Origin: Endomicrobiia bacterium
Lineage (GTDB): Bacteria > Elusimicrobiota > Endomicrobiia > DTEH01
Reading direction: 5' to 3'
DNA length: 64,000 nt
NCBI GenBank assembly: GCA_025060535.1
Contig: JANXCA010000001.1
Coordinates: forward strand, 7,730-71,729
Below the pieces are notes generated by a model that saw only the letters and a list, made by a program, of their open reading frames with translations, was not told the origin of the DNA and did not search any database. Below, one piece after another: positions 18,160 through 58,258 of the stretch. The position numbers and the translations under genes are program-made. Position 1 is the first letter of the stretch, and every line of letters starts with the position of its first letter.

Positions 18160-18435
18160 TTAAAACGCTTCAGAAATTTTATCTATCAACTTTTTGATTT
18201 TTTGTTTCACAATTTCTGTTTTAGATTGTAGATTTAGATAATCTTTATAGAAATTTTGAAGTTTTTTGTTTTCTTCTTTTAAAAGTTTTATATCACTATT
18301 CAAACGAGTATTCTCTGCTTTAAGAAATTCAATCTGTTTTATAAATTCCTTTAATTTTATCTCTAATAATGAAATTTGGTTTTCTAAATTTTCTAATCTA
18401 CTTAACAAATTGTGATAGCCTTTTATATCATTCAT
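18160..18435 (-). CDS. Small coiled-coil protein (ZapB/DUF904-like?), translationally coupled to the last hydrogenase-operon gene
   Basis: 91 aa, heptad-rich. Its ATG overlaps the upstream TAA stop by 1 nt (TAATG at 18437-18433). Confidence 0.3.
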   Translation of the reverse strand: MNDIKGYHNLLSRLENLENQISLLEIKLKEFIKQIEFLKAENTRLNSDIKLLKEENKKLQNFYKDYLNLQSKTEIVKQKIKKLIDKISEAF

Positions 18436-19106
18436 TATTTACTCTTTAATAAATATCCATATTCATCAAATAAAAATATTCTTCTTCTACATTTAGGACA
18501 TAAAATTTCATATAAATTTTCTCTTTGATAAAACTGAAAAAATTTTTTTTCTTTAAAAGGAAAATTCAATTTTTCATTTATTACCTGTAGTAAGTTTATA
18601 TTTCCAAAAGATTTATGACCAAGCTTTTGTATTATGTAAAGAAAGTGAGATTTTGTAGAAATAACACTTCTGCAATAAGAACATAAAATAAGTTCATGTT
18701 TTATCTCTTCTGATTTTAACGTTTCCCTATTAGTAGTAGCAAGTTCAAAATCTTTTGACATAACTACACCTGGTATTTTTTCATTTCTAGTAGTACAGTT
18801 TCTTGCACACTGAGCACAGAAAATACATTCATCATAAAACCATACTAAGTATCTTACACCAGAAACTATTTCAACAGAACCTTGAGATGTAAGTTCAGTT
18901 TTCAGTTCATCTTTAAGTTTAATCGCTCCCGTAGGGCATACCTCTACACAAGCTCCACAACCAATACACCCTTCCTGTGAGGGATCTGGCCTACCACGAA
19001 AACTCTCAGGTGGAATATGAGGTTCAAAGGGATATTTAGTAGTAGCAGGACCTTTAATCAAAGCTTTAATGGCTTCTTTTATTTCTCTTAATTTGGGATA
19101 TTTCAT
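18435..19106 (-). CDS. NuoI/MbhN-like 2x[4Fe-4S] ferredoxin subunit of the membrane-bound hydrogenase, with extra C-terminal CxxC...CxxC tail
   Basis: CIGCGACVEVCP and CIFCAQCARNC cluster motifs. C-terminal ~70 aa carries CSYCRSV...CPKCRRR (zinc-ribbon-like). Confidence 0.7.
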   Translation of the reverse strand: MKYPKLREIKEAIKALIKGPATTKYPFEPHIPPESFRGRPDPSQEGCIGCGACVEVCPTGAIKLKDELKTELTSQGSVEIVSGVRYLVWFYDECIFCAQCARNCTTRNEKIPGVVMSKDFELATTNRETLKSEEIKHELILCSYCRSVISTKSHFLYIIQKLGHKSFGNINLLQVINEKLNFPFKEKKFFQFYQRENLYEILCPKCRRRIFLFDEYGYLLKSK

Positions 19107-19441
19107 TTTATTCTTTCTTTATAATTTCTGTACTCATCACATACAGATTGCTGACACATTTTTACACCGGATTTATAAGCTGCTTTTGCTAAAGCATGAG
19201 ATGATACAGGTGACGTCAAAAATACAAAAATAATTATTAATAAGGCTTTTAAACCTATAATTGTAAAACCATAGTAGAAAAATACTCCAAAAAATATGCC
19301 ACAAGTTCCTAAGGTTACACATTTAGTAGATGCTTGTAACCTAGTATATACATCAGGAAATCTTACCAAACCCAAGCATCCTATTAAATCTGCTATTATT
19401 CCAATTGTTATAAAAAATAATCCTATAATTTCATTCATCAA
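19103..19441 (-). CDS. Mrp/Mnh antiporter subunit G-like (MbhC-like)
   Basis: 112 aa, 3 TM, MnhG/PhaG-like. Position and order within an mrpABCDEFG-type array. Confidence 0.65.
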   Translation of the reverse strand: MMNEIIGLFFITIGIIADLIGCLGLVRFPDVYTRLQASTKCVTLGTCGIFFGVFFYYGFTIIGLKALLIIIFVFLTSPVSSHALAKAAYKSGVKMCQQSVCDEYRNYKERIK

Positions 19442-19766
19442 ATTTTTTCCCCTCCAGGTATTTTGCTAAAGCTAAATTCCCTATAAATGATTGTAATGCC
19501 CAAGCTATTGCTACATCTATAAAAAATGCTGCTTTTGTAAAAACTGTAATAATTCCACATATACCTACTACTATAAGTCCCAAAATATCTGTAGCTACAG
19601 CTCGGTCTGCAGGTGAAGGTCCAAGAAATATCCTATAAAGACACAAAATTATACTCAAAATCATAGGATTTACAAATCTTATAATTAAATCCATTTTTAT
19701 AACTAAATTAGATATTATAAAAACAGCTATTAAAACTAAACAAATGATATAATTTATTTTTTTCAT
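19431..19766 (-). CDS. Mrp/Mnh antiporter subunit F-like (MbhB-like)
   Basis: 111 aa small membrane protein at the position between MrpE-like and MrpG-like. Confidence 0.6.
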   Translation of the reverse strand: MKKINYIICLVLIAVFIISNLVIKMDLIIRFVNPMILSIILCLYRIFLGPSPADRAVATDILGLIVVGICGIITVFTKAAFFIDVAIAWALQSFIGNLALAKYLEGKKFDE

Positions 19767-19780
19767 ATCATGAAAATAAA

Positions 19781-20287
19781 CTACTTACACGTAATTTTCA
19801 TTAGAATTTTTTCAAATTTATGAGCTATTTTTTTAGTAACAGCTTCCACGTCTACGTCTCTTACATATATCCAATGCACATAAATATATCCATTCTCTTT
19901 ATCTATATCAACACTCAAAGTACCTGGTGTCAATGTTATTGAATTTGCCAAAATTGTTAAAAATGCATCTGATTTTATACTAGTTTTAACTTTAACTATT
20001 CCGGGTTTTATTGGCATATTAGGTGATAAAATTCTATATGCTACATCTATATTGGCTTTTATTACTTCATAAAGGAAAATAATAATATAATATAAAAACC
20101 ATAAATACCTTTGTGGTTTTTTAAATGTCCACTCATTTTGAATATTAATATCTCCAAATAATAATATAAGTATAACACTACAAATAATACCGAATATTAC
20201 ATTATAAATTTCAAATCCAGACAAAATTATCCATACCAAAAAAACTAAACATATAAGAAAAATTTTCCTATACACTCTTATTTTCAT
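19781..20287 (-). CDS. Mrp/Mnh antiporter subunit E-like (MbhA-like)
   Basis: 168 aa with N-terminal TM pair; operon position. Confidence 0.55.
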   Translation of the reverse strand: MKIRVYRKIFLICLVFLVWIILSGFEIYNVIFGIICSVILILLFGDINIQNEWTFKKPQRYLWFLYYIIIFLYEVIKANIDVAYRILSPNMPIKPGIVKVKTSIKSDAFLTILANSITLTPGTLSVDIDKENGYIYVHWIYVRDVDVEAVTKKIAHKFEKILMKITCK

Positions 20288-21774
20288 TTTAAGATAAACT
20301 TAATATATAAATTTTCAGTGATAAATTTTATTACTCCATCAAATACTATATGTTTTATATTAGGATATAAAATTATTCCTGAAACAAAACACAAAATCGC
20401 TAATGTTAACATAGAAAACTGCATAAAAAAAGGAACTTCTTTTAAAAGTTTTGGACCTGTATTATATTTTTGTTCGGTATAAAAAGCATATTTTAGAACT
20501 TTTAAAAAACTAGCTAAAGTTAAAACACTTACTAAAGCCGCAATCAAAGCTAATAAGATATCTCTTTTTTCTAAACAAGCTATTATTATAATTAATTTTG
20601 ACCAAAAACCGTTAAAAGGAGGAATTCCTGCAATAGAAAAACTTCCTATTGTTGCAGAAAATGTAGTAATTGGCATTATTCTGTTTACATTATGATACTC
20701 CTTTAAGTTTCTAGTTCCAAAATTATACTCTAAAGCTCCACTTGTTAAAAATAGCAAAGATTTAAATAATGAATGATTAAATAAATGGAAAATACCACCC
20801 AAAATACCCATAGGAGTTGCAAGTCCAATTCCTAAAAAAATATATCCAACTTGACTAATAGAATGATATGCAAGAAGCCTTTTGTAATCCCACTGATATA
20901 AAGCAAGTATCACTCCAACAACCATAGATAAAGTTCCCAGATAACAAATCATCTTTAAGATTTTCTCATCTATAGGAAATACATTAAAGAATAACCTTAC
21001 TATCAAGTATACACCAAGTGTTTTAATAAGAACTCCAGAAAGCATTGCAGAAATTGGTGCCGGAGCTGAAGGATGTGCATCTGGTAACCACCAATGAAAA
21101 GGAACTATTGCTGCTTTAATAACAAAACCAATCATAAATATAAACATTATTACTCTAATAATAAGTTTGTCTTCAGATAATATCAAAATAGAAGCAATAT
21201 CTGCTAAGTTCAATGTAGATGTATAAGCATATATTAAAACTATACCTAATAAAATTAAACCTGTAGAGATAGACCCTAACACCATATATTTAAAGGATGC
21301 TTCTAATTCTTCCTTTTGAGTACCAAAAGCAACGAGTCCATATGAAGCAATAGTTGCTATTTCTAAAAACACAAATATATTGAATATATCTCCACTTATT
21401 ATAACACCATTCATGCCAGCAAGCATTAATTCAAACAAAGAGTAAAACCCCCACTTCTCTGTATATTTTTCAATATATGACACAGAATATATACCTACTA
21501 AAAATGCAACTAAGTTTACTGTAAACAACATAAAAACACTAACAGGATCGGCTACAAGAGCAACTCCATATGGAATTTTCCATCCCCCTACTTCATATAC
21601 AAAAATATTATTGTTTAATGTGTTAATTTTATAAATCCATATAATACATAAAATTAAAACTACAAAATTTATAAGATTTACAAAAACCTCAGAAAATAAC
21701 TTTAAAAATCTTCCAACCATAGTATTAATAAAAGCAGCAAATAACGGTAGAACAACAAAAAGTGGTAAAGTCAT
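20284..21774 (-). CDS. MrpD/NuoN-like proton/sodium-translocating antiporter subunit
   Basis: 496 aa, ~14 TM, NuoL/M/N family signatures (WLPDAH..AP). Confidence 0.85.
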   Translation of the reverse strand: MTLPLFVVLPLFAAFINTMVGRFLKLFSEVFVNLINFVVLILCIIWIYKINTLNNNIFVYEVGGWKIPYGVALVADPVSVFMLFTVNLVAFLVGIYSVSYIEKYTEKWGFYSLFELMLAGMNGVIISGDIFNIFVFLEIATIASYGLVAFGTQKEELEASFKYMVLGSISTGLILLGIVLIYAYTSTLNLADIASILILSEDKLIIRVIMFIFMIGFVIKAAIVPFHWWLPDAHPSAPAPISAMLSGVLIKTLGVYLIVRLFFNVFPIDEKILKMICYLGTLSMVVGVILALYQWDYKRLLAYHSISQVGYIFLGIGLATPMGILGGIFHLFNHSLFKSLLFLTSGALEYNFGTRNLKEYHNVNRIMPITTFSATIGSFSIAGIPPFNGFWSKLIIIIACLEKRDILLALIAALVSVLTLASFLKVLKYAFYTEQKYNTGPKLLKEVPFFMQFSMLTLAILCFVSGIILYPNIKHIVFDGVIKFITENLYIKFILK

Positions 21775-21782
21775 AAAATTAT

Positions 21783-22154
21783 TTAACCTCTTAACTCTTT
21801 TATTTTTGTAATATCAAATGTTTTATACCTATGATATAATCTTAACGCAACAGCAACCATCAAAATTGTTATAGAAAGTCCTATCACAATAGAGGTTAAC
21901 ACCAAAGCTTGCGGAAGAGGATCCACTATATTATCCGCAGGACGATTTTTTAAAAATACAGGGAAACTACCGCCTTTTTTATAGCCTACTATTATAAAAA
22001 ACAAGTTTAGAGCATTATCCATTATTATAAATGATATTATAATCTTTAGTAAGTTTTTTTTCATTACTAACCCATATAAACCTACAAAACATAAACATAA
22101 ACATAAAATATATACTAACACAAAATTCCACCCTCCTTTTTTATTTTTCTTCAT
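21783..22154 (-). CDS. MrpC/NuoK-like subunit
   Basis: 123 aa, 3 TM, NuoK-like. Confidence 0.65.
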   Translation of the reverse strand: MKKNKKGGWNFVLVYILCLCLCFVGLYGLVMKKNLLKIIISFIIMDNALNLFFIIVGYKKGGSFPVFLKNRPADNIVDPLPQALVLTSIVIGLSITILMVAVALRLYHRYKTFDITKIKELRG

Positions 22155-22605
22155 CTTGTGGTGAAAATAATATCAAGCATAAGAAAGCACTTAACATTCC
22201 AAAACCCACTTTTATCATAATTGCTATATTAGCTGGTAATATCATACCTCCGGATAACAAACTAAATGCTTTTCCCTGTCCCAAAAAATCCTTAAAAAAC
22301 ACTCCCACAGAAAACCCCATTATAGATATAGAAAGAAACATTAACGCTCCTGTAGTTTCCAAAGATTCCGATAAAATTTTATTAATTTTTTTAACTACAA
22401 AATCTTTACCGTACGCAAGTATTATATGAATAAAAGATAAAGCAACTATAACTCCACCAGCAAACCCTCCCCCCGGACTTAAATGACCAAAAAGAGTAAT
22501 ATACCAACCGTAAAGCATAATAAATAAAACTGTCCATCTGGTGACTGTTTTTACTATCAAACTCATCCCAGATGATGTAAAATTCTTATTATTGGTTTCT
22601 TTCAT
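22141..22605 (-). CDS. MrpB-like subunit
   Basis: 154 aa, 4 TM; MnhB domain position. Confidence 0.55.
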   Translation of the reverse strand: MKETNNKNFTSSGMSLIVKTVTRWTVLFIMLYGWYITLFGHLSPGGGFAGGVIVALSFIHIILAYGKDFVVKKINKILSESLETTGALMFLSISIMGFSVGVFFKDFLGQGKAFSLLSGGMILPANIAIMIKVGFGMLSAFLCLILFSPQDEEK

Positions 22606-23125
22606 TATTTAACTTTTTACCAACTTTTCTTAAAATTAAAATCACCGATAAAATTGCAGTAAATAAAACTGTTGCTTCTCCTAAAGTATCGTAAGCTCTA
22701 TAATTTAAAATTATAGCAGCAACTATATCCGTAGCACCTGTATCACTAATAGTATTTTTTATGTAATAATCTGAAACTCTATATTTAGGATTTCCAAAAT
22801 CAGGTAAAAATCTTAAAGAAAATCCTAATATAACCAAAAATATAAGGATACTCATCAGAATTGGTATTCGCAACAAAATTTTCTTTTTTTCATATACATC
22901 TTCATCTCTTACTATTGTAGCTCTTATTAGTATTACTAAGGATAATATTTCCACCACAAACTGAACAATAGCAACATCAGGAGCTTGAAGCAACAAAAAC
23001 AATAATGTTAAAATTAACCCTACCGCTCCTAAACTAATAACTGAAGACAATAAATCTCTTATTTCGATAGCAACTATAGCTGCTATAATCATTAATAATA
23101 TAAGTAAAGAAATAATTATTTCCAT
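22589..23125 (-). CDS. MrpA C-terminal-domain/MrpB-like small membrane subunit (MbhD/E-like)
   Basis: 178 aa, very hydrophobic, sits between MrpA-like and MrpB-like. Confidence 0.45.
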   Translation of the reverse strand: MEIIISLLILLMIIAAIVAIEIRDLLSSVISLGAVGLILTLLFLLLQAPDVAIVQFVVEILSLVILIRATIVRDEDVYEKKKILLRIPILMSILIFLVILGFSLRFLPDFGNPKYRVSDYYIKNTISDTGATDIVAAIILNYRAYDTLGEATVLFTAILSVILILRKVGKKLNNERNQ

Positions 23126-23137
23126 AAAGTTTTAAAA

Positions 23138-25021
23138 TCACAACAAAAATATAAAAAATAAAATTAAAATGCTTATAAATATCCAAGACAAATAACTATG
23201 TAAGTTACCATTATGTAAAAAAGATAATTTTTCAGCTACTTTAAATATATTTTTTTTGCTAAAGATATACAAATCCACTATATCTAACTTAAGGACCTTA
23301 CTAATACCATTTACTAAAAAAGATAAACTCCACAAAAACCAATTATAAATATCAAATAATTTATTTTCTGCTAAATAATAAAGTACTGAAAAAGGAAACA
23401 TTTGCTTTATTGTTAAATAAAAATCTGTAGATGGAAAATAAGATTCTCCTAACTTCTCTTCTTCTCCAAGAAGGTATACATTTACTTTTCTAGGTTTATC
23501 TACAAATAATATATATATAATCAAACCAATAAAAACTCCCAAAATTAATAAATATGTAGCTGCTTGAGCATTCCATTCTCCAATCAATAAAATTTTTTCA
23601 AAACCCAGCATTGGTTTAACAATTCTACTAATAGGTATCTCAAAAGAAAAAATTCCTAAAATTATACATAAAATAGCTAATATACCCATTGGTAATACAT
23701 TAAATATTTTTTCTTTCTCCTTTAATACTCTATTAGTATGTTCATCTTCGTTTTTTGAAAGAAATACTGAATATAACACCTTTACAAAAGAAGCGAATGT
23801 AAGTGCACTACCAAACATAATACTTATTAAAACTAATACACCTACAAAAAAGTATTTTTTTGAAACTTCTATAACTGACTGATATATAAGCCACTTAGAA
23901 AAAAAACCATTAAATGGAGGAATTCCTGAAATAGATAAAGCAGCAATTAAGGTAAAAACAAAACATAAAGGATAATATTTTGCTAAACCCTTAGCTTTAG
24001 TAAGTTCTACATCTTCAGTATATTTTTCAACAAAATCAGAAGACAAAAAAAGTAAAGTTTTATAGATAGTATTATTTATCATATGAAAAACCCCACCTAC
24101 AATACCTAAAACCGATCCTGTCGAAATCCCCACAACCATATATCCAATTTGTGAAATAGCATGATATGAAAGAAGTTTTTTTAAATTATGTTGTATCAAA
24201 GCCATAAATACTGCAATTAAAACAGTTAAACCCCCTAATATCATTAGAAAAGGATGATAACTTAATATAAATATATCTTTTGTAATCCTTACTAACAAAT
24301 ATATACCTAAAATTTTATCTAAAGCTCCAATTAAAAAACCTCCTAAAGCAGAGGGTATCTTCTCTGCAGTTTCAGGAATCCAAGTATGAAAAGGTATAGC
24401 TCCAATTTTACCTAAAGCACCGATTGTTAAAAGACTAAATATCAAAGGATATTTATTAACATCTAAATTATATGAAGTAAAATATAATCCATACATATTA
24501 GAAGCTTCCTTAATTAAAAGAATAATGCCTATTAGTAGGGAAAAATCACTTATACTTATTATAGTTATTGCTTTTGTCGCTGTATTAAACTCATCATTTG
24601 CAGTCACAAATCTTATTAATAAGTAAACAAGTATTCCCAAAATTTCCCAGGAAATTAAAAACAAAATTAAATTTTTGGATAAAAGTGATAAATGTGTGAA
24701 TGCTAAAATAAAAAAAATAAATGAAAAATATATATTTTCTTTTACTGTATCTAAAATTTTTTTTGAAAAAATTACTACAATTAATCCAAAGAAAGAAGCT
24801 AATACAGAACTTATTAAAGAAGTAAAATCACTTATTAGAACTATATCTATTTTTAAGAATTTTAACCAATCAATCATATATTCTTTTCTATTCACTAGCA
24901 AAAGGAGGTTTAACACAAAACAACAAAAAGAAAAAAATAAACTTATGAAATATAATTTTTTTCTAAAAATTAAACAAATCAATCCAGCTAATAAAGGAAT
25001 TAGTATTATTAAATAACCCAT
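23138..25021 (-). CDS. MrpA/NuoL-like antiporter subunit (long form)
   Basis: 627 aa, NuoL family core plus C-terminal extension TMs. Confidence 0.8.
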   Translation of the reverse strand: MGYLIILIPLLAGLICLIFRKKLYFISLFFSFCCFVLNLLLLVNRKEYMIDWLKFLKIDIVLISDFTSLISSVLASFFGLIVVIFSKKILDTVKENIYFSFIFFILAFTHLSLLSKNLILFLISWEILGILVYLLIRFVTANDEFNTATKAITIISISDFSLLIGIILLIKEASNMYGLYFTSYNLDVNKYPLIFSLLTIGALGKIGAIPFHTWIPETAEKIPSALGGFLIGALDKILGIYLLVRITKDIFILSYHPFLMILGGLTVLIAVFMALIQHNLKKLLSYHAISQIGYMVVGISTGSVLGIVGGVFHMINNTIYKTLLFLSSDFVEKYTEDVELTKAKGLAKYYPLCFVFTLIAALSISGIPPFNGFFSKWLIYQSVIEVSKKYFFVGVLVLISIMFGSALTFASFVKVLYSVFLSKNEDEHTNRVLKEKEKIFNVLPMGILAILCIILGIFSFEIPISRIVKPMLGFEKILLIGEWNAQAATYLLILGVFIGLIIYILFVDKPRKVNVYLLGEEEKLGESYFPSTDFYLTIKQMFPFSVLYYLAENKLFDIYNWFLWSLSFLVNGISKVLKLDIVDLYIFSKKNIFKVAEKLSFLHNGNLHSYLSWIFISILILFFIFLL

Positions 25022-25025
25022 ATGT

Positions 25026-26411
25026 TTAAATTTTTATTAATTTTAAAATTATATCTGGATAAACTCCTAAAATAACAGAAAAAAAGGTCAATAAAGCAAC
25101 TACAAAAACCATCCAAGAATAGTGTTGTTTAATATCATATTTTTTGGTTCCTAAAAATACACTATTATATACCCTCATAAAATATACCAAGCTTAAAAGA
25201 GCACCAATGATTAATAAAAATGCTAATGTAATTTTATTTGCTTGTAGCATACCCTTTAATATAAAAAATTTACTCCAAAAACCACTAAAAACTGGAAAAC
25301 CTATTATAGACAATCCACATAAGAAGAAACATGCAGAAACTATCGGCATATTTTTTGATAAACCTCCGAGTTTTAAAATATTCTTTTCTTTTAACTCATG
25401 TTCAATTATTCCTGCAGATAAAAACAACCCTGCTTTTGCAAAAGCATGAGAAATTATATAAAAAATTGCTCCAATTATACTTTCTTTCACATTGACTGCG
25501 AATCCTAAAAATATATAACCTAGTTGAGAAATTGTAGAATATGCTAAAATTCTTTTTATATCAAACTCTGCTAAGGCCATAAAACTTGATATAAAGATTG
25601 TAAAAAATGATAAATAAATAATTAATGACTGTAAATTATTTGAAATTTGAAAAGTAAAATTAAAAATCCTTCCAAAAGCATAGGTTCCTATTTTTACAAG
25701 AACTGCTGCATGTAAAAGTGCTGTAACAGGAGTAGGAGCTACACCTGCATCAGGTAGCCAACTTTGAAATGGTAACTGTGCAGATTTTGCTATCATACCA
25801 ATAATTAAAAATACACCTGCTAAATCAGAAATTTTTCTATCTTTTAAATATGTAAAATCAAAACTTCCAAATTCTATATAATTAATAACTATTCCACATA
25901 ACATCAAAACTGAGCCCAAAGAAGTAACAAGAAAAGCCTTGTTAGCTTTTGTAATATGATCATCTTTTTTGTAAAATTTAATCAATTTCCAAGAACATAA
26001 AGAAGTTAATTCCCAAAAGATATACATCAAAATTAAATTACAACTGAAAACTAAACCTATCATTGAAGCTATAAATAAGGTATTGTAAAAATAATAGTAT
26101 CTTTGATTTTCATCCTCTGATATATACTCAAACGAATAAAGAGTAATTAATAGACTAATAAATACTGAAGTTAAAATAATTAATAATGAATAAAAATCAA
26201 TTATGAAAATATTTATTCCTTTAAAATTTAATAAAAAATTTTTTTCTATATTTAAAAAAAATCTTAAAGACAACACAACCAAACATATTAAACTTAGACT
26301 TATAAAAAATAAAGATAAAAACTTATATAACTTTTTGTTTTTTAAACTTCCAATAAGAAAAACACTTATAAATAATAATATTAAGCTACTTAAAATTAAA
26401 ATATTATTCAT
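25026..26411 (-). CDS. Additional NuoL/M/N-like antiporter subunit of the hydrogenase module (MbhH-like)
   Basis: 461 aa; NuoL/M/N family signature (SWLPDA..P..VTALLHAA). Confidence 0.8.
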   Translation of the reverse strand: MNNILILSSLILLFISVFLIGSLKNKKLYKFLSLFFISLSLICLVVLSLRFFLNIEKNFLLNFKGINIFIIDFYSLLIILTSVFISLLITLYSFEYISEDENQRYYYFYNTLFIASMIGLVFSCNLILMYIFWELTSLCSWKLIKFYKKDDHITKANKAFLVTSLGSVLMLCGIVINYIEFGSFDFTYLKDRKISDLAGVFLIIGMIAKSAQLPFQSWLPDAGVAPTPVTALLHAAVLVKIGTYAFGRIFNFTFQISNNLQSLIIYLSFFTIFISSFMALAEFDIKRILAYSTISQLGYIFLGFAVNVKESIIGAIFYIISHAFAKAGLFLSAGIIEHELKEKNILKLGGLSKNMPIVSACFFLCGLSIIGFPVFSGFWSKFFILKGMLQANKITLAFLLIIGALLSLVYFMRVYNSVFLGTKKYDIKQHYSWMVFVVALLTFFSVILGVYPDIILKLIKI

Positions 26412-27591
26412 AGAGTTTCCTTATTTTCTCTGTTTTCTGTTGAGAAAGTTTAACTAAATCGTCCCAACATAAAATTTCTTGATTTGTTTTTAAATCTACT
26501 ACAGTAGCTCTTTCTGTACAACAATAACAAGGATCCACAGCTGCCAAAGTTATTGCTGCATCTGCAATTGTTTGGCCCACAGCTGCTACTTTATTTGAAG
26601 CAATGTTCATATAAGAAGGAGCACGAATTTTATGTCTTATAGGTCTGTTAGAACCATCTGACCGAATATAGTGAAAAACTTCACCACGAGGAGCTTCATG
26701 TCTTCCTATACCTTCACCAGGTGGTATAAAATCAATCTTAGTTTCTATATTCCCCTCAGGTTCCTTTTTCAATTTTTCTAAACATTGTTTTATTATTTTA
26801 ATTGACTCATACATTTCAAGAATTCTAACCACTGCTTTATCAAAAACATCTCCATTATATAAGACAGGAACATTAAATTCAACCTCTCCATAAGCAGCAT
26901 AAGGATCATCTCTTCTTACATCTATGTCTATACCACTTGCACGAGCTGTAGGTCCTACTACACAATACTTAATAGCATCTTCTTTTGTCAGAACACCAAC
27001 TCCTTTAAGTCGTGCATGAATTACTGGATCATCCATAATAGCACCTCTAAACATATCAATCACTGACAACAACCCATCACACATTTTTTCTATCTGGGGG
27101 ACTAAATCATTCGGAATATCTCTTCTTACTCCACCAACTTTAAACATAGCATAATGTTGACGATTACCAGAGATAACTTCTAATATATCACACACATTCT
27201 CCCTATGCTTCCAGGACCACATCCATATTGTATTATATCCTATAAAATGTCCAGCCAATCCTAACCATAAAAAATGAGAATGTAATCTTTCAAGTTCTCC
27301 TATTATACTTCTTATGTATTTAGCACGTACAGGTACATCTATCCCAGCTAAATCCTCCACTGCATTTACATAAGCAAAAGGATGACTTGTAGAACATATA
27401 CCACATATTCTCTCAACTACAAATGGGATTTGATCGTAATGCTTAAGGGTAGAAATTTGTTCAATACCACGATGATTATATCCTATTTCTATTTCTATAT
27501 CTACAACTTTTTCCTCTTCTACATATAATTTAAAAAATTCTGGCTCTTCTTGTAAAGGATGATATGGCCCTATTGGAATAATTTTTTTCAT
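26404..27591 (-). CDS. Group 4 [NiFe] hydrogenase large subunit (NuoD/MbhL-like) with intact Ni-Fe ligands
   Basis: N-terminal RICGICSTSH (RxCGxCxxxH) and C-terminal DPCYCCTER (DPCxxCxxR) read directly; 395 aa. Confidence 0.9.
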   Translation of the reverse strand: MKKIIPIGPYHPLQEEPEFFKLYVEEEKVVDIEIEIGYNHRGIEQISTLKHYDQIPFVVERICGICSTSHPFAYVNAVEDLAGIDVPVRAKYIRSIIGELERLHSHFLWLGLAGHFIGYNTIWMWSWKHRENVCDILEVISGNRQHYAMFKVGGVRRDIPNDLVPQIEKMCDGLLSVIDMFRGAIMDDPVIHARLKGVGVLTKEDAIKYCVVGPTARASGIDIDVRRDDPYAAYGEVEFNVPVLYNGDVFDKAVVRILEMYESIKIIKQCLEKLKKEPEGNIETKIDFIPPGEGIGRHEAPRGEVFHYIRSDGSNRPIRHKIRAPSYMNIASNKVAAVGQTIADAAITLAAVDPCYCCTERATVVDLKTNQEILCWDDLVKLSQQKTEKIRKLYE

Positions 27592-28017
27592 TTATTTTTC
27601 CCTTAATGGATAGCTATTATCTGGCCAATCGTCAGATAATAACAAATGTTTCAAATTAGGATGCCCTATAAAGTTTATACCTATCATCTCCCATATTTCC
27701 CTTTCTATCCATTCAGCTGCAGAAAAAATTGAACTTAAAGAATATATTTCTGGTTTTTCTTTACTAAGCTTTACCCTTAGTGAAACTATCTCTCCTGTTT
27801 TATCATAACTAAAATGATAAATAATCTCAAAATATTTTTCACAATCCATGCCAGTAGCAGTTATAAATCTAAATCCTAACTCATTAAATAAAAGACTTGC
27901 AACTTTTTTTATACTTTCCGGCTTAATTTCAATATAATATCTTCTGTCATTTTTTTTAAATAACTCAATCGTATCTTCACTTATTCTTTGGGTTATTTTA
28001 TTTATTATCTCACTCAT
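27592..28017 (-). CDS. NuoC-like hydrogenase subunit (MbhK-like)
   Basis: 141 aa; NuoC/HycE N-terminal-domain family; immediately precedes the large subunit. Confidence 0.7.
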   Translation of the reverse strand: MSEIINKITQRISEDTIELFKKNDRRYYIEIKPESIKKVASLLFNELGFRFITATGMDCEKYFEIIYHFSYDKTGEIVSLRVKLSKEKPEIYSLSSIFSAAEWIEREIWEMIGINFIGHPNLKHLLLSDDWPDNSYPLREK

Positions 28018-28025
28018 ATAATAAC

Positions 28026-28445
28026 TTATGTTTTTAGAGATTTTATCAATTTTACTATACCATCAATTATAGCTTCTGGCTTGGGAGGACAACCAGGTAC
28101 ATACGCAGAAACAGGAACAATTTTATCAACATCACAAGGACTATTAAAAGAATCCTTAAAAACTCCCCTTCCACAAGCACAAGTACCAATTGCTACTACA
28201 AAACATGGTTTAGGAGCTTGTTCATATAAATATTTCAATTTTGTATAATTTTTATAATTAGGCACACCTGTCACCAACAAAACATCTGCGTGTCTAATGG
28301 AACCTACTAGTTGAATACCAAATCTTTCTAAGTCATATCTTGGAGTCAAAGCATCTAAAATTTCAATATCACAGTTATTACATGGAGAAAGAGGTAAATG
28401 AAAAACCCACAATGATTTTAATAAAGATTTTTTTATTAATCCCAT
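28026..28445 (-). CDS. [NiFe] hydrogenase small subunit, NuoB/MbhJ-like
   Basis: Cys ligands SPCNNCDIE, GTCACGRG, PGCPPKPE. Confidence 0.85.
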   Translation of the reverse strand: MGLIKKSLLKSLWVFHLPLSPCNNCDIEILDALTPRYDLERFGIQLVGSIRHADVLLVTGVPNYKNYTKLKYLYEQAPKPCFVVAIGTCACGRGVFKDSFNSPCDVDKIVPVSAYVPGCPPKPEAIIDGIVKLIKSLKT

Positions 28446-28452
28446 ATTTATT

Positions 28453-29364
28453 TTATAAAATAAATAATAAAATAACTGATAATAAACTTAAAGGGAATAT
28501 TATAAACCAAAAAAATTTCATTACTTGAATTATTTTTAATCTCGGATTTATATTTTTAAAAATAATTATAAAAAATAAAATCATTAAGTACTTTATTACA
28601 AAAGAAACGACTCCTCCATCAAAAAAATATAATCCTACTAAAAAAGCTGGAAAAAGAGACATAAAAACTTGTTTTGTTAATTTTATTAATCCTAAAAGAA
28701 TTCCAGAAAATTCCATCAAAATGCCTCCAGCAATTTCAGTCTCAGCTTCAGGAGCATCAAATGGTACTATCCCACTTTTAGCATATAAACAAATAAATAA
28801 TACAAAAAATGACAAAATTGAAGGCAAAGAAAGAGTATTCTTTTGCATTATTTCTATCAACTTTAAGCTACCAGAGTTTAAAATTGGAACTAATGTTGCT
28901 GTTATGAGTGGTAATTCATAAGATAATAACATTTTTATTTCTCTAGAAACTCCCAATGATACAATTACATTGCCAGATGAAGCTCCCCCTAGTATTAACA
29001 TAACAGAGGGAATTAACAAAAGATAAACAAAAACAGTAATATCTCCGATAAATCCTTTTTTAAAAATTATAGCTGTCCATAAAATAGAAGATGCTAATAC
29101 AACTGATGCAAAACTTAAAAATGGAGATAAGAAAAACAGTAAGTTTGCATTTTTAGGAACGGTTACTTCTTTTAAAAGTAGTTTAAAAAAATCATATAAA
29201 GGTTGAAGCAAAGGTGGACCTTGACGATATTGTAGTCTTGCTGTTATCTTTCTATCTAAAAAACTCACAAAAATAGAAAGAATAAAACTAAACAAAAATC
29301 CAGGAAATAAAAGATAAATAAACAAAGAATTTATAACATTCATAATTACTTCTCTAAAATCCAC
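28453..29364 (-). CDS. NuoH-like membrane subunit (MbhM-like)
   Basis: 303 aa, 8 TM, GPPLLQPLYDFFKL motif. Confidence 0.8.
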   Translation of the reverse strand: MDFREVIMNVINSLFIYLLFPGFLFSFILSIFVSFLDRKITARLQYRQGPPLLQPLYDFFKLLLKEVTVPKNANLLFFLSPFLSFASVVLASSILWTAIIFKKGFIGDITVFVYLLLIPSVMLILGGASSGNVIVSLGVSREIKMLLSYELPLITATLVPILNSGSLKLIEIMQKNTLSLPSILSFFVLFICLYAKSGIVPFDAPEAETEIAGGILMEFSGILLGLIKLTKQVFMSLFPAFLVGLYFFDGGVVSFVIKYLMILFFIIIFKNINPRLKIIQVMKFFWFIIFPLSLLSVILLFIL

Positions 29365-29870
29365 TTCATTACACGAACAACTAAGTTCTTATTTATTTCA
29401 TATATATTTTCTTTTTCATTCGGTTGCACATCTCTATAAGAAATAGCTCCTTCCGGACAAGTCACACTGCATAAAGGAGGATTCTCATCACTTGCACGGT
29501 CTAAACAAAAATCACATTGTGAACTTTTATAATCTAAAACATCTTTGTATATAGTACCAAATGGACAAGCTACTAAACAACTTTTACAAGATGTGCATCT
29601 AAATAAACTTTTATGTAAAATACCATCTTTATCTTTAAATAAGGCCTCATTTGGACAACTATTTATACAAAACGCATCTTCACATCTTCTACAAATAAAA
29701 TACTGTAAGACCTTTGAAAAAAACTTCTCAAATCCTTTGTTTAAAGATTTTTCTTTTGGTTTATCTTTATAAACATGCGAATGTTGATAAAAATAAGAAC
29801 ATTCTGCTTTACATTCTTTACAACTATAACATTTTTCTATGTCTATAAATATTCTTTTCATTTTATTCAA
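29346..29870 (-). CDS. HycB/HyfA/CooF-like ferredoxin with four [4Fe-4S] motifs
   Basis: CysxxCysxxCysxxxCys(Pro) motifs x4 (CYSCKECKAEC, CRRCEDAFCINSCP, CTSCKSCLVACP, CDFC...CSVTCP). Confidence 0.75.
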   Translation of the reverse strand: MNKMKRIFIDIEKCYSCKECKAECSYFYQHSHVYKDKPKEKSLNKGFEKFFSKVLQYFICRRCEDAFCINSCPNEALFKDKDGILHKSLFRCTSCKSCLVACPFGTIYKDVLDYKSSQCDFCLDRASDENPPLCSVTCPEGAISYRDVQPNEKENIYEINKNLVVRVMKWILEK

Positions 29871-30684
29871 ATGGTTCTGGTATGTCTTTTAGTTGCTCCC
29901 AACTAAACACAGGCCCATCTTTACAGATAAAATAACTTCCAATCTGACAATGACCACATTTGCCTAAACCACAACTCATATTTCGTTCCATTGAAAGATA
30001 AATCTGATTAGGTTTAAATTTCATATCAATCAATTTTAATGTAGTAAATTTCATCATTATCGGTGGTCCACATACAACAGCAACCGAATTTTCTACATCA
30101 ATTTTTATCTTATCTAACAAACAAGTAACCACCCCTACAGTTTCATCCCACTCTCCCGGCTGACATCTATCTACAGATCTTAAAATTTCCAATCCTTTAA
30201 TTTTATACCATTCTGGAAACAGATATTTATATACTATATCAGATGGAGTTCTTGCTCCGTAACATAAAACTATTTTTTTAAAATCTGAAATTTTTTCAAT
30301 TAAAGTAAAAAGTAAAGATCTCAATGGCGCAAGTCCTACTCCTCCACCAACTATTAACACTTCCTTTCCCACAAAACTTTCAACAGGATAACCTTTCCCA
30401 TAAGGACCGCGAATGCCGACTATTTCTCCCTCTTTCATAGAATGCAAAAATTCCGTCATTCTCCCCACACGCATAATTGTCACATCCATTGTGTCTGTTT
30501 TATATGGAGAAGAAGAAGGTGTAAACGGCGCTTCTCCAACACCATATACTGTAAGTTCTATAAACTGCCCAGTTTTAAAAGAAAACTTATCGCTATCTAA
30601 TGGTTTAAGAGTAAATGTTTTAATATTTGGAGTTTCTTCTATAATCTTTATAATTTTAAAATTTTGAGGTTTATATATACTCAT
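29863..30684 (-). CDS. FAD/NAD(P)-binding oxidoreductase with C-terminal 2Fe-2S (PyrK/AsrB/sulfhydrogenase gamma HydG-like)
   Basis: FNR-like fold (GIRGPYGKGYP, LIVGGGVGLAPLRSL) and C-terminal CGLGKCGHCQ...C cluster. Confidence 0.8.
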   Translation of the reverse strand: MSIYKPQNFKIIKIIEETPNIKTFTLKPLDSDKFSFKTGQFIELTVYGVGEAPFTPSSSPYKTDTMDVTIMRVGRMTEFLHSMKEGEIVGIRGPYGKGYPVESFVGKEVLIVGGGVGLAPLRSLLFTLIEKISDFKKIVLCYGARTPSDIVYKYLFPEWYKIKGLEILRSVDRCQPGEWDETVGVVTCLLDKIKIDVENSVAVVCGPPIMMKFTTLKLIDMKFKPNQIYLSMERNMSCGLGKCGHCQIGSYFICKDGPVFSWEQLKDIPEPFE

Positions 30685-30694
30685 TTTTAAAAAA

Positions 30695-31732
30695 TTAAAC
30701 CAAAACTTCTTCTCCTTTTGCTAAAACTAAACTTCTTATAACTTTTCTCATATCTATTTTCCCTGGACAAACTTCTATACATCTACCACAACCACTACAG
30801 GCATACATATTAAAATTTTCATATCTATATACAAACTTACATTGATATCTGTTTCTAAAACGTTGATATTTATATTTTCTAGGATTTGCTCCACCCGCAA
30901 CTCTGGAATATCCAGTAAAATGGCACACATCCCATACTTTATCTCTGTGTTGATCTTTATAATCCTTTGAAGCTTCCCTAATTAAAAAGCAATAACAACT
31001 TGGACATATAAAATTACAACCTCCACATTGAACACATTTTTCTGATTCTTTTTCCCAAATGCTTTCTAATTCATATGTATTTTTTAATGTAAGATAATGC
31101 TTATTTTTTTTATCTTCTTTGATATATTCTTTATTAAACTCATATATTTTCCTTTCAGAAACTACCCTTACACTATTTCTTTTTAAATAATCATTTTTTG
31201 TTGGTTCTTCAAACTCATTAAAATTTTCTTTTAAAAATTCCTCACCCTTTTGAGTAAATGCCTCCAAAATCAAATTATTTTCATCTACAAAAGAAATATT
31301 TAAGTCACTTCCGTCCCCTTTTTCTACATAAGGTCTACCACCAACTATACTACAAAAACAAGACAACTGAGGATTTATACAATCAGAAGATATAATTAAA
31401 GTATTTTCTTTATAAATTTTATATTTCTCATCTACATATTCTTCTCCTATAAATATATTGTCTAAAATTCTTATTGCTTTGAGGTCACAAAATTTTACAT
31501 CTAACAATAAAATCTTTTCGACAGAAGTAAAACTGGTTAGTATGTCTTTTACTTTAAAGAAAAATAATTTAGGAGGGTGTATACAACGAATGTTTAATAA
31601 TGCTAAATTTTGTATTTCTTGTGGATTAATTATTTTTTTATAGATTTGATCAAAATTATGATATATTATAATAAAATTATTCAAATTTTTAAAAACCGAT
31701 AAAAGATCGGAATAATTTATTATTTTCTCCAT
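30695..31732 (-). CDS. AsrA / sulfhydrogenase beta (HydB)-like iron-sulfur protein; first gene of the hydrogenase operon
   Basis: 345 aa; CVQCGGCNFICPSCYC and CSGCGRCIEVCP motifs. Confidence 0.7.
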   Translation of the reverse strand: MEKIINYSDLLSVFKNLNNFIIIYHNFDQIYKKIINPQEIQNLALLNIRCIHPPKLFFFKVKDILTSFTSVEKILLLDVKFCDLKAIRILDNIFIGEEYVDEKYKIYKENTLIISSDCINPQLSCFCSIVGGRPYVEKGDGSDLNISFVDENNLILEAFTQKGEEFLKENFNEFEEPTKNDYLKRNSVRVVSERKIYEFNKEYIKEDKKNKHYLTLKNTYELESIWEKESEKCVQCGGCNFICPSCYCFLIREASKDYKDQHRDKVWDVCHFTGYSRVAGGANPRKYKYQRFRNRYQCKFVYRYENFNMYACSGCGRCIEVCPGKIDMRKVIRSLVLAKGEEVLV

Positions 31733-31741
31733 AATACTTAT

Positions 31742-31759
31742 TTGTGAAATTTTTCACAA
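31742..31759. promoter_or_regulatory. Putative Rex operator TTGTGAA-ATTT-TTCACAA, 10 nt upstream of the operon ATG and abutting a TATAAT -10 (31760-31765, minus strand)
   Basis: Perfect 7-4-7 inverted repeat read directly. Matches published Rex consensus TTGTGAAnnnnTTCACAA. It also contains a CRP-like TGTGA-N6-TCACA core. Confidence 0.6.
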
Positions 31760-31806
31760 ATTATAAAATTTTTAAAAAGATATATAATACAAAATATCTT
31801 GTCAAG
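31760..31806 (-). promoter_or_regulatory. Putative sigma70-type promoter of the hydrogenase operon (-10 TATAAT at 31765-31760; TTGACA at 31805-31800)
   Basis: Hexamers read on minus strand. TTGACA/TATAAT spacing is 34 nt, so either an alternative -35 or a second -10 (TATCTT region) is used. Ambiguous. Confidence 0.35.
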
Positions 31807-31808: not shown

Positions 31809-32234
31809 TTAATAAATCTTTTCCTCTTCAGTAAACTTTTGACATTTTATGCAGAGATCTGTCCAAGGTAATGTTTCTAATCTCTTTTTAGGAATTTTTT
31901 CTCCACATTTACTACAAATACCATATTCTTTTTTTTCTATTTTTTCTAATGCTGCGTTTATTAAATTTAAAAGATTTATTTGTGTATCAGAGAGTTCACG
32001 GCGAAGTTCCCTATCTAAATTATGTTCTGCCATATCTATCTCATCACCTATGTCTGTGGGAAGCTCTATATTATTAGTTTTGTGAAGTTTCATTAATTCA
32101 TTATATTTTTCTATTAACTTTTTTTTATAGTACTCCAATTCTTTTTCTGAGATTTCTGCTTTTTTACAAACTTTTTGTTTAACTTTATATTTTTTTTTAT
32201 TAAGATTTTTATTAAGACTTTTCTTTTTTTTCAT
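31809..32234 (-). CDS. DksA/TraR-family C4 zinc-finger protein with Lys-rich N-terminus
   Basis: C-terminal CSKCGEKIP...CIKCQ four-Cys finger and preceding coiled-coil; 141 aa. Confidence 0.6.
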   Translation of the reverse strand: MKKKKSLNKNLNKKKYKVKQKVCKKAEISEKELEYYKKKLIEKYNELMKLHKTNNIELPTDIGDEIDMAEHNLDRELRRELSDTQINLLNLINAALEKIEKKEYGICSKCGEKIPKKRLETLPWTDLCIKCQKFTEEEKIY

Positions 32235-40858: not shown

Positions 40859-41599
40859 TTATTGTTTTTCTTTTGTAACTGTACTTATAAAAATTTCTTC
40901 TAAAGGTATCCTTTGCCATTCTTTATTTTCTACTATTTTTAAAATTTTACCCTTATGAATTATAGCTACACGATCACACACTTTTTCAAGCTCCGAGATA
41001 AGATGAGAAGAAAAAAATATTGTTTTGCCTTGTGACTTAAGTTGAAGTATAAAATCTCTTATCTCTTTTATGCCTAATGGATCAAGACCACTTGTGGGTT
41101 CATCAAATACTAATATAGCTGGATTGTGAATTATTGCTTGTGCTAATCCTAATCTTTGAATCATACCTTTTGAATATTCTGATATTTTTCTATCAATACT
41201 GTCAGAAAGTTTAACAAAATCAATTACTTCTTTAATTCTTTTATTATCTATAAAACCTAATGAAAGACTTGCATATAATTTGAGTAATTCTAAACCTGTA
41301 AAATTTTTATTGAAACTTACTAATTCTGGTAAATAACCAATGTGTTTATTTATCCTCCAATCCGGGATTTTGTTACCAAACACATATATCTCACCAAAAT
41401 CAGGAAACAAAAGCCCCAAAATTAACTTTATTGTAGTCGTTTTACCAGAACCATTAAGACCTAATAAACCAAAAATTTCATTTTTATAAACTTCAAAACT
41501 AACCTCTTCTATACCTATAACATACTTTGTTTTTAAAAATTTATGCTTTTTATATATCTTTTTGAGTCGTTTTACTTCTATTATTTTCTCGCTATTCAT
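40859..41599 (-). CDS. ABC transporter ATP-binding protein (ABC-2 type), orphan (no adjacent permease)
   Basis: Walker A GLNGSGKTT, signature YSKGMIQRLGLA, Walker B ILVFDEPTSGLD. Confidence 0.8.
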   Translation of the reverse strand: MNSEKIIEVKRLKKIYKKHKFLKTKYVIGIEEVSFEVYKNEIFGLLGLNGSGKTTTIKLILGLLFPDFGEIYVFGNKIPDWRINKHIGYLPELVSFNKNFTGLELLKLYASLSLGFIDNKRIKEVIDFVKLSDSIDRKISEYSKGMIQRLGLAQAIIHNPAILVFDEPTSGLDPLGIKEIRDFILQLKSQGKTIFFSSHLISELEKVCDRVAIIHKGKILKIVENKEWQRIPLEEIFISTVTKEKQ

Positions 41600-43188
41600 A
41601 ATTTTATAAACTTTACCATATTAATACCGGAAACTTGTTCAAGAGAAGAAATTAATTGCGAAGTAATTTCACTATCTACATTAATAAAAGTTAGTGCCTC
41701 ACCACCTGGTATTTTTCTTGCCACAAACATCTTTGCAATATTTATGTTATTGTCTCCCAAAATTGTGCCTATCTTTCCAATTATACCTGGCTTGTCTATA
41801 TTAGAAACTACAATAATATTTCCTTCAGGTTCTAAATCTGCATCCATACCATTGATTTCTATTATTCTACAATTATTATCTGAGATCAAAGTACCAGAAA
41901 TAGTATAAGTGCTTTTAGAAGTTTCAACTTTGGCAGTTATATATTCTTTATACTCTTTACCTTCTCTAAGTTTGGTTTCTTTAATAGATATTCCTCTTTC
42001 TTTAGCAATTATTTGAGAATTTATAAAATTAAGTTGGATATCTACAAATCTTGAAAGAAAGCTTTTAACATATGCTGAAGTTAAGATATATGTATTTATA
42101 TTATTAAAAATTTCTCCTACATACTGAATTTCTATTTGTTTTACAGCTTCAAGAGTAAGATGGCTTTGTAGTAAACCAATTTTCTCAACTAATTTAATAT
42201 AAGGTTTTAGTTTCTCATACATCTGAAAATCAATTGAAGGAATATTTACTGCATTTTTTATAACCCCTTTTGTAAAAAAATCAACTATCATTAAAGAAAC
42301 CTCTTGTGCAATCTTTACCTGTGCTTCTTCAGTAGAAGCTCCTAAATGTGGAGTAAACACAACGTTTTCCATTTTAAATAAAGATGAAGAAAAATCTGGA
42401 GGTTCTTTTTCAAATACATCTAAAGCAGCTGAGGATACTTTACCAGATTTTAATGCTTCATATAAATCATTTTCATTTATAATTCCTCCACGAGCACAAT
42501 TTACAATTTTTACTCCATCTTTCATTTTTGAAATTGTTTCTTTATTGATTAAATTTTTTGTAGAATCTGTTTTAGGAATATGTAGACTAATAATATCAGA
42601 TTCTTTTAACAAATCTTCAAAAGATTTAAGTTCTACTCCTAACTGATTAGCATATTCTTCAGAAACATATGGATCATAAGCTATAATCCGCATATCAAAT
42701 GCTTTCATCCTTTTAGCTACTTCAGAACCAATTCTACCTAACCCTATAAGTCCTAATGTTTTTCCTTGAAGTTCATTACCTACAAATTTTTCTCTTTCCC
42801 ATCTACCGGATTTTAAAGAGTTATGTGCTTGAGGTATATTTCTTACCATAGCCAGTATAAGACCAATTGTATGTTCACAAGCAGAAATAGTATTCCCTCC
42901 AGGAACATTCATCACTATAATTCCTTTTTTATTTGCAGCATTAATATCTACATTATCTACTCCAGTACCTGCTCTAACTATTAACTTTAACTTATCAGCA
43001 GATTCTATTATTTCCTTTGTAACTTTTACTTCAGAACGAATCAAAAGTCCTTCATAATCTCTTATTAAATTTTGAAGTTCTTCTTGAGTAGGTTTAGGTT
43101 TTATATCTACCTGAATTTCTGGGTGATTTAGTAGTAGTTCTAATCCCTCGGTATTTTTATATGTCATTAAAATTTTATATTTTTTCAT
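41596..43188 (-). CDS. serA: D-3-phosphoglycerate dehydrogenase (with ASB and ACT domains)
   Basis: 530 aa; NAD-binding GLIGLGRIGSEVA, 2-hydroxyacid dehydrogenase catalytic region, C-terminal ACT. Confidence 0.85.
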   Translation of the reverse strand: MKKYKILMTYKNTEGLELLLNHPEIQVDIKPKPTQEELQNLIRDYEGLLIRSEVKVTKEIIESADKLKLIVRAGTGVDNVDINAANKKGIIVMNVPGGNTISACEHTIGLILAMVRNIPQAHNSLKSGRWEREKFVGNELQGKTLGLIGLGRIGSEVAKRMKAFDMRIIAYDPYVSEEYANQLGVELKSFEDLLKESDIISLHIPKTDSTKNLINKETISKMKDGVKIVNCARGGIINENDLYEALKSGKVSSAALDVFEKEPPDFSSSLFKMENVVFTPHLGASTEEAQVKIAQEVSLMIVDFFTKGVIKNAVNIPSIDFQMYEKLKPYIKLVEKIGLLQSHLTLEAVKQIEIQYVGEIFNNINTYILTSAYVKSFLSRFVDIQLNFINSQIIAKERGISIKETKLREGKEYKEYITAKVETSKSTYTISGTLISDNNCRIIEINGMDADLEPEGNIIVVSNIDKPGIIGKIGTILGDNNINIAKMFVARKIPGGEALTFINVDSEITSQLISSLEQVSGINMVKFIKL

Positions 43189-43205
43189 CTATTTAAACTC
43201 CTTTT

Positions 43206-44348
43206 TTATAAATTATTTATTTTTTCTTCAAATGCTTTTACTCCACTACCTAATGGTATCTTTATTCCCAATTTATTTAAAACAACTTCTAAACCATAAA
43301 TTCCAACCACTAAATCAAATCTATCAATATAACCCATATGAGCAATTCTTACAATTTTACCTTTTAGTTTATCTTGTCCACCAGCAATTGAAATTCCAAA
43401 CTCTTCTCGCATTATTTTAACAACTTTCTGACCATCAACTCCTTCAGGCATCTCAATCGGGGTAACTATATTACTTATATGATTTTCATCACAAAAGATC
43501 TTTAAACCCATTGATTTTATAGCATATCTTGTAGCAATTGCTAGTTTTTCTGTATCTTCCCAAATTTTTTGCAATGTCTTTTCTTTTATCATTTCTATTG
43601 CTTTATGAATAGCCACAACTAAACTAACAGCAGGAGTAAAAGGAGTTTCTTTGTTCTCAATTGATTTTCTCATTCTTTTAAAATCAAAATAAAACTTTGG
43701 TAAGTTAGAATTCTCCACTAACTGCCAAGCTTTAGTACTCACACTAACAAAAGATAATCCGGGAGGACACATTAATCCCTTCTGTGAACCAGTTACTGCT
43801 ACATCTACATTCCATTCATCATTCAAAAATTTTTGGTTTACTAAGCCACTTATTGTATCTACTACTAACACTGCTTGTGTATCCTTAACAATTTTGCCTA
43901 TCTCTTCAATATTATTTACAACACCTGTTGAAGTTTCTGTGTGTGTTGTAAAAACAGCTTTTATATTTTTATTTTGTTGCAGAATTTTTTCTATATCTTT
44001 TGGATTTATAGCTTTACCCCACTCCACAGCTACTTTATGAACTTTTACTCCATACGCTTGACAAATTTTCTCCCATCTATCTCCAAAATTACCACATGAA
44101 GCTACTATAACTTCATCATCTTTTGATAACAAATTTACAACAGATGCTTCCATAGCAGCAGTACCTGAACCTGTTACCATCAAAACATCTCCCTTAGTCT
44201 GAAAAATATATTTCATGCCCTCTATTACTTCCACAAAAATTTTACCAAATTCAGAAGTTCTATGATGTAGGATAGGACGTGCTTCTGCCTGTGCTACCTC
44301 ATGGGGAACAGGTGTTGGTCCCGGTGTTAATAGAAAATATTTTTTCAT
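43206..44348 (-). CDS. Class V aminotransferase (AGXT/archaeal-type phosphoserine aminotransferase-like)
   Basis: LLTPGPTPVP N-terminus, PLP-fold; adjacent to serA; SD AGGAGG upstream. Confidence 0.75.
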   Translation of the reverse strand: MKKYFLLTPGPTPVPHEVAQAEARPILHHRTSEFGKIFVEVIEGMKYIFQTKGDVLMVTGSGTAAMEASVVNLLSKDDEVIVASCGNFGDRWEKICQAYGVKVHKVAVEWGKAINPKDIEKILQQNKNIKAVFTTHTETSTGVVNNIEEIGKIVKDTQAVLVVDTISGLVNQKFLNDEWNVDVAVTGSQKGLMCPPGLSFVSVSTKAWQLVENSNLPKFYFDFKRMRKSIENKETPFTPAVSLVVAIHKAIEMIKEKTLQKIWEDTEKLAIATRYAIKSMGLKIFCDENHISNIVTPIEMPEGVDGQKVVKIMREEFGISIAGGQDKLKGKIVRIAHMGYIDRFDLVVGIYGLEVVLNKLGIKIPLGSGVKAFEEKINNL

Positions 44349-44373: not shown

Positions 44374-44391
44374 TTGTGAAATTTTTCACAA
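44374..44391. promoter_or_regulatory. Second putative Rex operator, identical 18-mer TTGTGAA-ATTT-TTCACAA, 25 nt upstream of the aminotransferase ATG
   Basis: Read directly. Same 18-mer as 31742-31759 and the same promoter architecture: minus strand TTGACT at 44419-44414, AT-rich -10 abutting the box, then AAGGAGG SD. Confidence 0.6.
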
Positions 44392-44432
44392 TATATAAAA
44401 TATTATTTAAAAAAGTCAATAGTTTTAAAAAA

Positions 44433-58249: not shown

Positions 58250-58258
58250 AGCAACCTC

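Follow-up and report, generated by a model that had tools for sequence, protein, structure and literature searches.

Rex homodimers bind TTGTGAA-N4-TTCACAA when the NADH/NAD+ ratio is low, and are released from DNA when NADH fills their Rossmann domains. The published consensus for Rex operators (ROPs) is TTGTGAANNNNTTCACAA (PMC6391272), and that for Rex of S. aureus is TTGTGAAW4TTCACAA (PMC2883068). In Gram-positives and Thermotogales, including S. aureus, C. bescii and C. saccharolyticus, operators with this 18-bp consensus occupy a promoter-proximal repressor position, and their targets are redox enzymes that include a membrane-bound [NiFe] hydrogenase and an operon encoding a class V aminotransferase together with phosphoglycerate dehydrogenase (PGDH) (PMC6391272, PMC2883068). 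Binding of C. bescii Rex has been demonstrated by EMSA both upstream of the NiFe Ech operon and upstream of an operon for a class V aminotransferase and an NADH-dependent phosphoglycerate dehydrogenase (PMC6391272). The same paper additionally places a serine-pyruvate aminotransferase in the Rex regulon of the Thermotogales (PMC6391272).

We analysed a stretch of 64,000 nucleotides (hereafter the window) from a member of the Endomicrobia, phylum Elusimicrobiota. The window contains two copies of the 18-mer TTGTGAAATTTTTCACAA, at positions 31742-31759 (putative Rex operator 1) and 44374-44391 (putative Rex operator 2). Each has 0 mismatches to TTGTGAA-N4-TTCACAA and matches the published TTGTGAANNNNTTCACAA exactly; neither is assigned to a strand. 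A preliminary description of this DNA had identified the first copy as a perfect 7-4-7 inverted repeat matching the Rex consensus of Firmicutes and Thermotogae, and had counted a second site. The sequence, the coordinates and the second copy were all borne out, and the consensus is indeed the same, but the host lies outside both of the groups named. We consider that the 18-bp palindrome is a Rex operator, with a probability of about 0.85 based on sequence analysis. The switch is of an ordinary and well-understood type, a textbook Rex operator, in a little-studied phylum. Four observations support this reading: orthologous loci carry the box at an equivalent position, rex lies adjacent to it in several of these, Rex is encoded in Endomicrobia metagenome-assembled genomes (MAGs), and the content of the regulon matches that of known systems. 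With respect to described ROPs, the present sites differ in their host phylum and in being known from sequence alone.

Operator 1 precedes a 17-gene group 4 [NiFe] hydrogenase operon on the minus strand (18435..31732; Pfam, NCBIfam and NiFe motifs). The genes encode, in order, HydB-like and HydG-like proteins, a Fer4_11 protein, a NuoH-like subunit, a NuoB-like small subunit, a NuoC-like subunit, the NuoD/[NiFe] large subunit, nine Mrp/Mbh-type membrane subunits and finally a ferredoxin, whose gene ends at 18435. According to Pfam and NCBIfam, the first product is a sulfhydrogenase-beta-like Fe-S protein (Fer4_22; 30695..31732, minus strand) and the second a sulfhydrogenase-gamma-like FAD/NAD(P)-binding subunit (29863..30684, minus strand). 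The large subunit (26404..27591, minus strand) retains both CxxC motifs that provide the Ni-Fe ligands, RICGICSTSH and DPCYCC, and the designation of the operon downstream of the box as a [NiFe] hydrogenase is therefore correct. A CxxC-containing large subunit, NuoB-like and NuoH-like proteins, Mrp subunits and a HydB/HydG-like module together fit the group 4 Mbh-Mrp-oxidoreductase type, and in this the hydrogenase differs from the Ech enzyme of C. bescii. This type has been described for Elusimicrobia, with an oxidoreductase module of unknown function (bioRxiv 10.1101/765248), and group 4g is the class given to a membrane-bound [NiFe] hydrogenase reported for the genus Endomicrobium (PMC11257099). 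Endomicrobia/Endomicrobiia MAGs supply the best homologues of the first gene. Judged by this gene, the closest species-representative genome (locus L001) is 75% identical, and a Logan assembly (L101) represents a strain-level relative at 97%.

The start codon of the first gene was assigned to the ATG at 31732 (ORF 30695-31732, minus strand), which is the true start because the N-terminal methionine is conserved in an alignment of 21 homologues. Nine nucleotides (31733-31741) separate this ATG from the box, in agreement with the spacing first reported. Within the window, two sites with at most one mismatch to TTGTGAANNNNTTCACAA were found where 0.04 were expected from 100 shuffles, placing exact and one-mismatch sites about 50-fold above expectation. 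A position weight matrix (PWM) built from related sites gave a consistent picture: both perfect sites scored 26.9 bits, the runner-up scored 10.1 bits and lay inside a coding region, and the coding DNA of the window thus held no matches of similar quality.

These figures bear on two other readings, namely that the palindrome arose by chance in AT-rich DNA between genes, or that a different regulator recognises it. The GC content of the window is 27%, a composition in which A/T-rich near-palindromes are common, and when three mismatches were allowed the window gave 11 matches against 10.3 expected, which is background and means that only the two perfect sites are meaningful. The excess of exact and one-mismatch sites argues against such an origin, as do the occurrence of the box at the same position in genomes of up to 60% GC and the identity of the two target operons, both of which match known Rex regulons. 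We regard chance, or another regulator, as very unlikely.

The arrangement of promoter elements at site 1 was assessed with a promoter scan. The sole good sigma-70-like pair was TTGACA-N17-TATCTT (10/12 matches), comprising a -35 hexamer at 31800..31805 and, 17 nt downstream of it, a -10 hexamer at 31777..31782, both on the minus strand; this is the likeliest hydrogenase promoter. Among six relatives the -35 hexamer is TTGACA in five (L002, L004, L005, L007 and L008) and TTGAAA in L001, which has TATATT at the position equivalent to the -10 TATCTT. The preliminary description had instead assigned the -10 role to a TATAAT fused to the box. This hexamer is present, abutting the box at 31760..31765 on the minus strand, but no passing promoter pair contains it and it is without an acceptable -35. 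Its position, moreover, reads AATAAA in L001, the nearest species-level relative, while the strain-level relative L101 keeps it. The TATAAT is probably not the conserved -10; in DNA this rich in A and T the hexamer may be fortuitous, or it may serve as an alternative -10, possibly of a second promoter at site 1. Since TATAAT is not conserved in L001 and has no acceptable -35, and TTGACA-N17-TATCTT is the best match, the box is likelier to lie at approximately +11 to +28 relative to the predicted promoter. The claim that the box holds a repressor position thus stands, whereas the proposed overlap with the transcription start is less likely. Both boxes are located at, or just downstream of, a predicted sigma-70-like promoter, which is a repressor position.

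No Shine-Dalgarno sequence was found before the first hydrogenase ATG, either in 31733-31741 or in the equivalent regions of L001-L008, where there is only an A/T-rich leader. Separately, a hairpin resembling a terminator (CCGATCTTTTATCGG and then a run of T) occurs at 31696-31710 on the minus strand, less than 40 nt into the hydB-like ORF. Its place just after a start codon is odd, and it is probably a product of chance.

Operator 2 is associated with an operon on the minus strand (41596..44348; Pfam, NCBIfam) that encodes a class V aminotransferase (43206-44348, minus strand; Pfam) and the phosphoglycerate dehydrogenase SerA (41596-43188, minus strand), the latter assigned by a score of 654 bits against a cut-off of 454 for TIGR01327 (NCBIfam). 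The 3' end of the operon shares 4 nt with an ABC ATPase gene, which may also belong to it. The predicted promoter consists of a -35 hexamer TTGACT at 44414..44419, an 18-nt spacer and a -10 hexamer TATATT at 44390..44395, all on the minus strand, and the last two bases of the -10 fall inside operator 2. Such an overlap of -10 and box is the classic geometry for occlusion. The aminotransferase gene also possesses a strong Shine-Dalgarno sequence, AAAGGAGG.

The two targets are NAD(H)-linked, as in known Rex regulons: one is a [NiFe] hydrogenase with an FAD/NAD-binding subunit, the other a class V aminotransferase with PGDH. Because operator 1 had been defined without reference to operator 2, this match in regulon content constitutes independent evidence for Rex. 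The preliminary description had cited hydrogenases and Rnf as canonical Rex targets. The hydrogenase operon of the window is indeed preceded by a box, but neither the mismatch scan nor the PWM scan detected a Rex-like site before its complete Rnf operon (RnfC, D, G, E, A and B; 57422-63347).

Scanning the alignment of the first hydrogenase gene against species-representative genomes yielded 80 loci, for 78 of which start codons could be set. The first nine genes, from HydB-like to MrpA-like, are in the same order in every locus long enough to contain them. A box with at most one mismatch was present no more than 150 nt upstream of the first gene in 32 of the 78, the upstream stretches searched amounting to 11.6 kb of 1.136 Mb (1%). 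Across the loci in their entirety there are 36 sites with at most one mismatch, and all but one of these (35/36) are upstream of hydB or rex. Four sites fall outside the 150-nt stretches; these include one upstream of hydB in L043, where the start was mis-set, and sites upstream of rex in L063 and L067. Genomes bearing the box belong to Endomicrobia, other Elusimicrobiota, 'Clostridia' MAGs, Planctomycetes and Omnitrophota, and a single Thermotogaceae locus has a box with two mismatches. The GC content of the genomes spans 0.26-0.60, so that neither base composition nor AT-richness explains the box. An Omnitrophota MAG contig of 56% GC, for instance, has a hydB homologue preceded at a distance of 22 nt by the same TTGTGAAATTTTTCACAA (L077:141-158).

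Within Endomicrobia the site is not uniformly maintained. Taking the window together with eight Endomicrobia loci, a site with at most two mismatches is present in 6 of 9, and the orthologous loci L003, L004 and L006 have none. The boxes of L002 and L005 are degenerate, with 2 mismatches each; the site in L005 (ATGTGAATTTTTTCACGA) is 10 nt before the ATG of the operon. Site 2 was kept in only one of ten related metagenome loci (L090), which has the same layout, with TTGACA-N17-TATACT abutting the box. The retention of site 2 in one of ten relatives, and the absence or degeneration of the site 1 box in some Endomicrobia, indicate that the regulon is evidently plastic.

The gene directly upstream of the operon in the window encodes a DksA/TraR-type zinc-finger protein (31809..32234, minus strand; Pfam, NCBIfam). 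This protein does not read the box, and its gene is included as genomic context only. A gene of this type is directly upstream of hydB in L001-L006 (for example L003:3305-3621, L006:8589-8927 and L004:9616-10001). In L003 and L006 the spacer has nearly gone and the box has been lost, which suggests that hydB and the dksA-like gene are transcribed together; L004 retains the TTGACA promoter, with the box replaced. Further upstream in the window is a polyamine-type cluster (32241-36212), in which an Orn/Lys/Arg decarboxylase gene is divergent from Orn/DAP-decarboxylase-like and saccharopine-dehydrogenase-like genes. The divergent promoter region of this cluster contains a lone TTCACAA half-site (33786-33803) that, with 3 mismatches, is not significant.

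The 80 loci were also searched for rex by tblastn, using Rex sequences as queries. Fourteen of the 80 yielded a Rex homologue, in each case on the same strand as the operon and upstream of it. In 11 of these 14 loci rex is directly adjacent to the operon; the distance is about 1.4 kb in L057 and L065, and 7.5 kb in L012. All seven of the rex ORFs checked exceed the NCBIfam cut-offs for Rex. The box usually lies between rex and hydB, although it precedes rex in L039 and L068 and occurs once at each place in L063 and L067. This cassette of rex, box and hydB is a feature of 'Clostridia', Omnitrophota and other MAGs (L009-L017, L039, L057, L063, L065, L067 and L068), and these loci resemble the window both in operon order and in the position of the box before the first gene. 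They differ from it in that rex stands beside the operon, whereas in the window and L001-L008 the upstream neighbour is the DksA/TraR-type gene and rex would lie elsewhere.

No rex was detected within the 64-kb window, either among ORFs of 190-260 aa examined with Pfam or by tblastn, and none was found near the operon in L001-L008. A search with the Rex of L012, an Elusimicrobiota locus, returned no matches named as Endomicrobia. Use of the AT-rich Rex P0137 as query, however, identified a clade at 55-69% identity to this query that includes Rex proteins named by NCBI as Endomicrobia/Endomicrobiia. One of these, P0248, is encoded on CAZDUB010000001.1, in the same MAG as L005 (CAZDUB010000005.1), which carries the operon and the box. 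Another, P0245, comes from the same sequencing run (SRR28200759) as the HydB of the L001 MAG. P0245 and P0248 score 221.6 and 203.9 bits, respectively, on NCBIfam NF003995 (cut-off 126), and both combine a winged-helix domain (PF06971) with a Rossmann/CoA-binding domain (PF02629) and a GCGNLGSAL motif; P0248 aligns with solved PDB structures of Rex at E = 1e-38. A Rex protein from run SRR15826900, the source of L101, was not found, P0243 and P0249 belonging to other runs.

The rex genes of Endomicrobia (L084-L089 and L102-L104; positions ~4001-4640 in L084-L089) reside in a conserved rex-PAC2-parA-parB block that adjoins chromosome-partitioning genes; in most cases PAC2 is followed by a GDT1 gene and rex is preceded by a DUF6588 gene. 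No box with three or fewer mismatches was found upstream of rex in L084-L087. Compared with known ROP systems, rex in Endomicrobia stands apart: it is unlinked to its putative targets, has PAC2-GDT1-parAB as neighbours and lacks a preceding box. A box before rex does occur in L063, L067, L081, L082, L039 and L068, unlike in Endomicrobia.

The linkage of rex to the box is relevant to an alternative already raised in the preliminary description, namely that a regulator of the CRP/FNR family reads the box through a TGTGA-N6-TCACA core. CRP-family proteins recognise cores of this type, and the 5-6-5 core shared with CRP sites is perfect at both positions and found nowhere else in the window. The presence of the core was thus confirmed, but a CRP/FNR reader gained no support. 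The box is repeatedly linked to rex rather than to crp or fnr, and conservation extends beyond the core, with T at positions 1-2, A at 17-18 and T at 13 being invariant as in the 18-20 bp Rex pattern, in a set of sites that is biased by having been selected on pattern. Activation sites for CRP/FNR are typically centred at -41.5 or -61.5; with respect to the predicted promoters, the box is instead centred at about +1 in site 2 and, in site 1, at about +3 to +20. Furthermore, tblastn with E. coli CRP and FNR gave no match in the window or in the ~1.2 Mb of loci, which is weak evidence as distant homologues could escape. Flanking conservation, promoter position and the linked gene all point to Rex, and we consider it very unlikely that a CRP/FNR-family protein is the reader.

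Across the compiled sites the stem bases never vary, except for the pair at positions 7 and 12, which changes to T/T or C/T without compensation. This argues for sequence-specific recognition by a protein over RNA structure. Most Omnitrophota sites are of an asymmetric form, TTGTGA(T/C)-N4-TTCACAA, in which position 7 is T or C and its symmetric partner remains T; this form is found approximately 30-55 nt upstream of hydB in L033-L067 (Omnitrophota, Planctomycetes). It is very unlikely that the palindrome, instead of being a DNA site for a protein, works at the RNA level by forming a hairpin in the 5' leader that influences translation or transcript stability: it does fold as RNA into a 9-bp hairpin (-8 kcal/mol, z = -2.5) that would lie 9 nt before an ATG devoid of a Shine-Dalgarno, but the stem sequence is otherwise the same in genomes of different phyla and GC content and shows no compensatory changes, the site 2 palindrome overlaps -10/+1 so that much of it would be untranscribed, and the linkage to rex would be left unexplained.

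If the palindrome is a Rex operator, as we favour, Rex bound at site 1 would either occlude -10/+1 (where the promoter uses TATAAT) or act as a roadblock to the polymerase at about +11 to +28 (where the promoter uses TATCTT). At site 2 the operator would overlap -10/+1 of the aminotransferase/PGDH operon. Both operons would be repressed when NADH is scarce and de-repressed as reducing equivalents build up. The first two subunits of the hydrogenase resemble the NAD(P)H-binding beta/gamma pair of sulfhydrogenase, and for this reason the de-repressed enzyme could vent electrons as H2, with NAD(P)H as the presumed electron donor. For the second operon the logic is less apparent: PGDH produces NADH in serine synthesis, and the reason for its de-repression at high NADH is consequently not obvious. 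The same puzzle has been remarked upon for C. bescii (PMC6391272).

A Rex box, often with rex, accompanies the HydB/HydG-Mbh-Mrp operon in at least five phylum-level groups, and this cross-phylum association suggests that the hydrogenase handles electrons derived from NAD(P)H. A more speculative proposal, which we put forward tentatively and regard as rather doubtful, is that the hydrogenase is an NAD(P)H-linked, ion-translocating and H2-evolving redox valve that has spread horizontally as a self-regulated cassette, with the oxidoreductase module as the point of entry for NAD(P)H and with control by Rex being ancestral. Were this to be true, the enzyme would resemble complex I and would run on NAD(P)H and protons. 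What goes beyond the ordinary here is only the association, across phyla, of rex and its operator with a hydrogenase whose extra module lacks a known function. To our knowledge, almost nothing is known of gene regulation in Endomicrobia and related uncultured lineages. For these organisms the putative operator would provide a concrete regulatory link between the NADH/NAD+ ratio and H2 metabolism.
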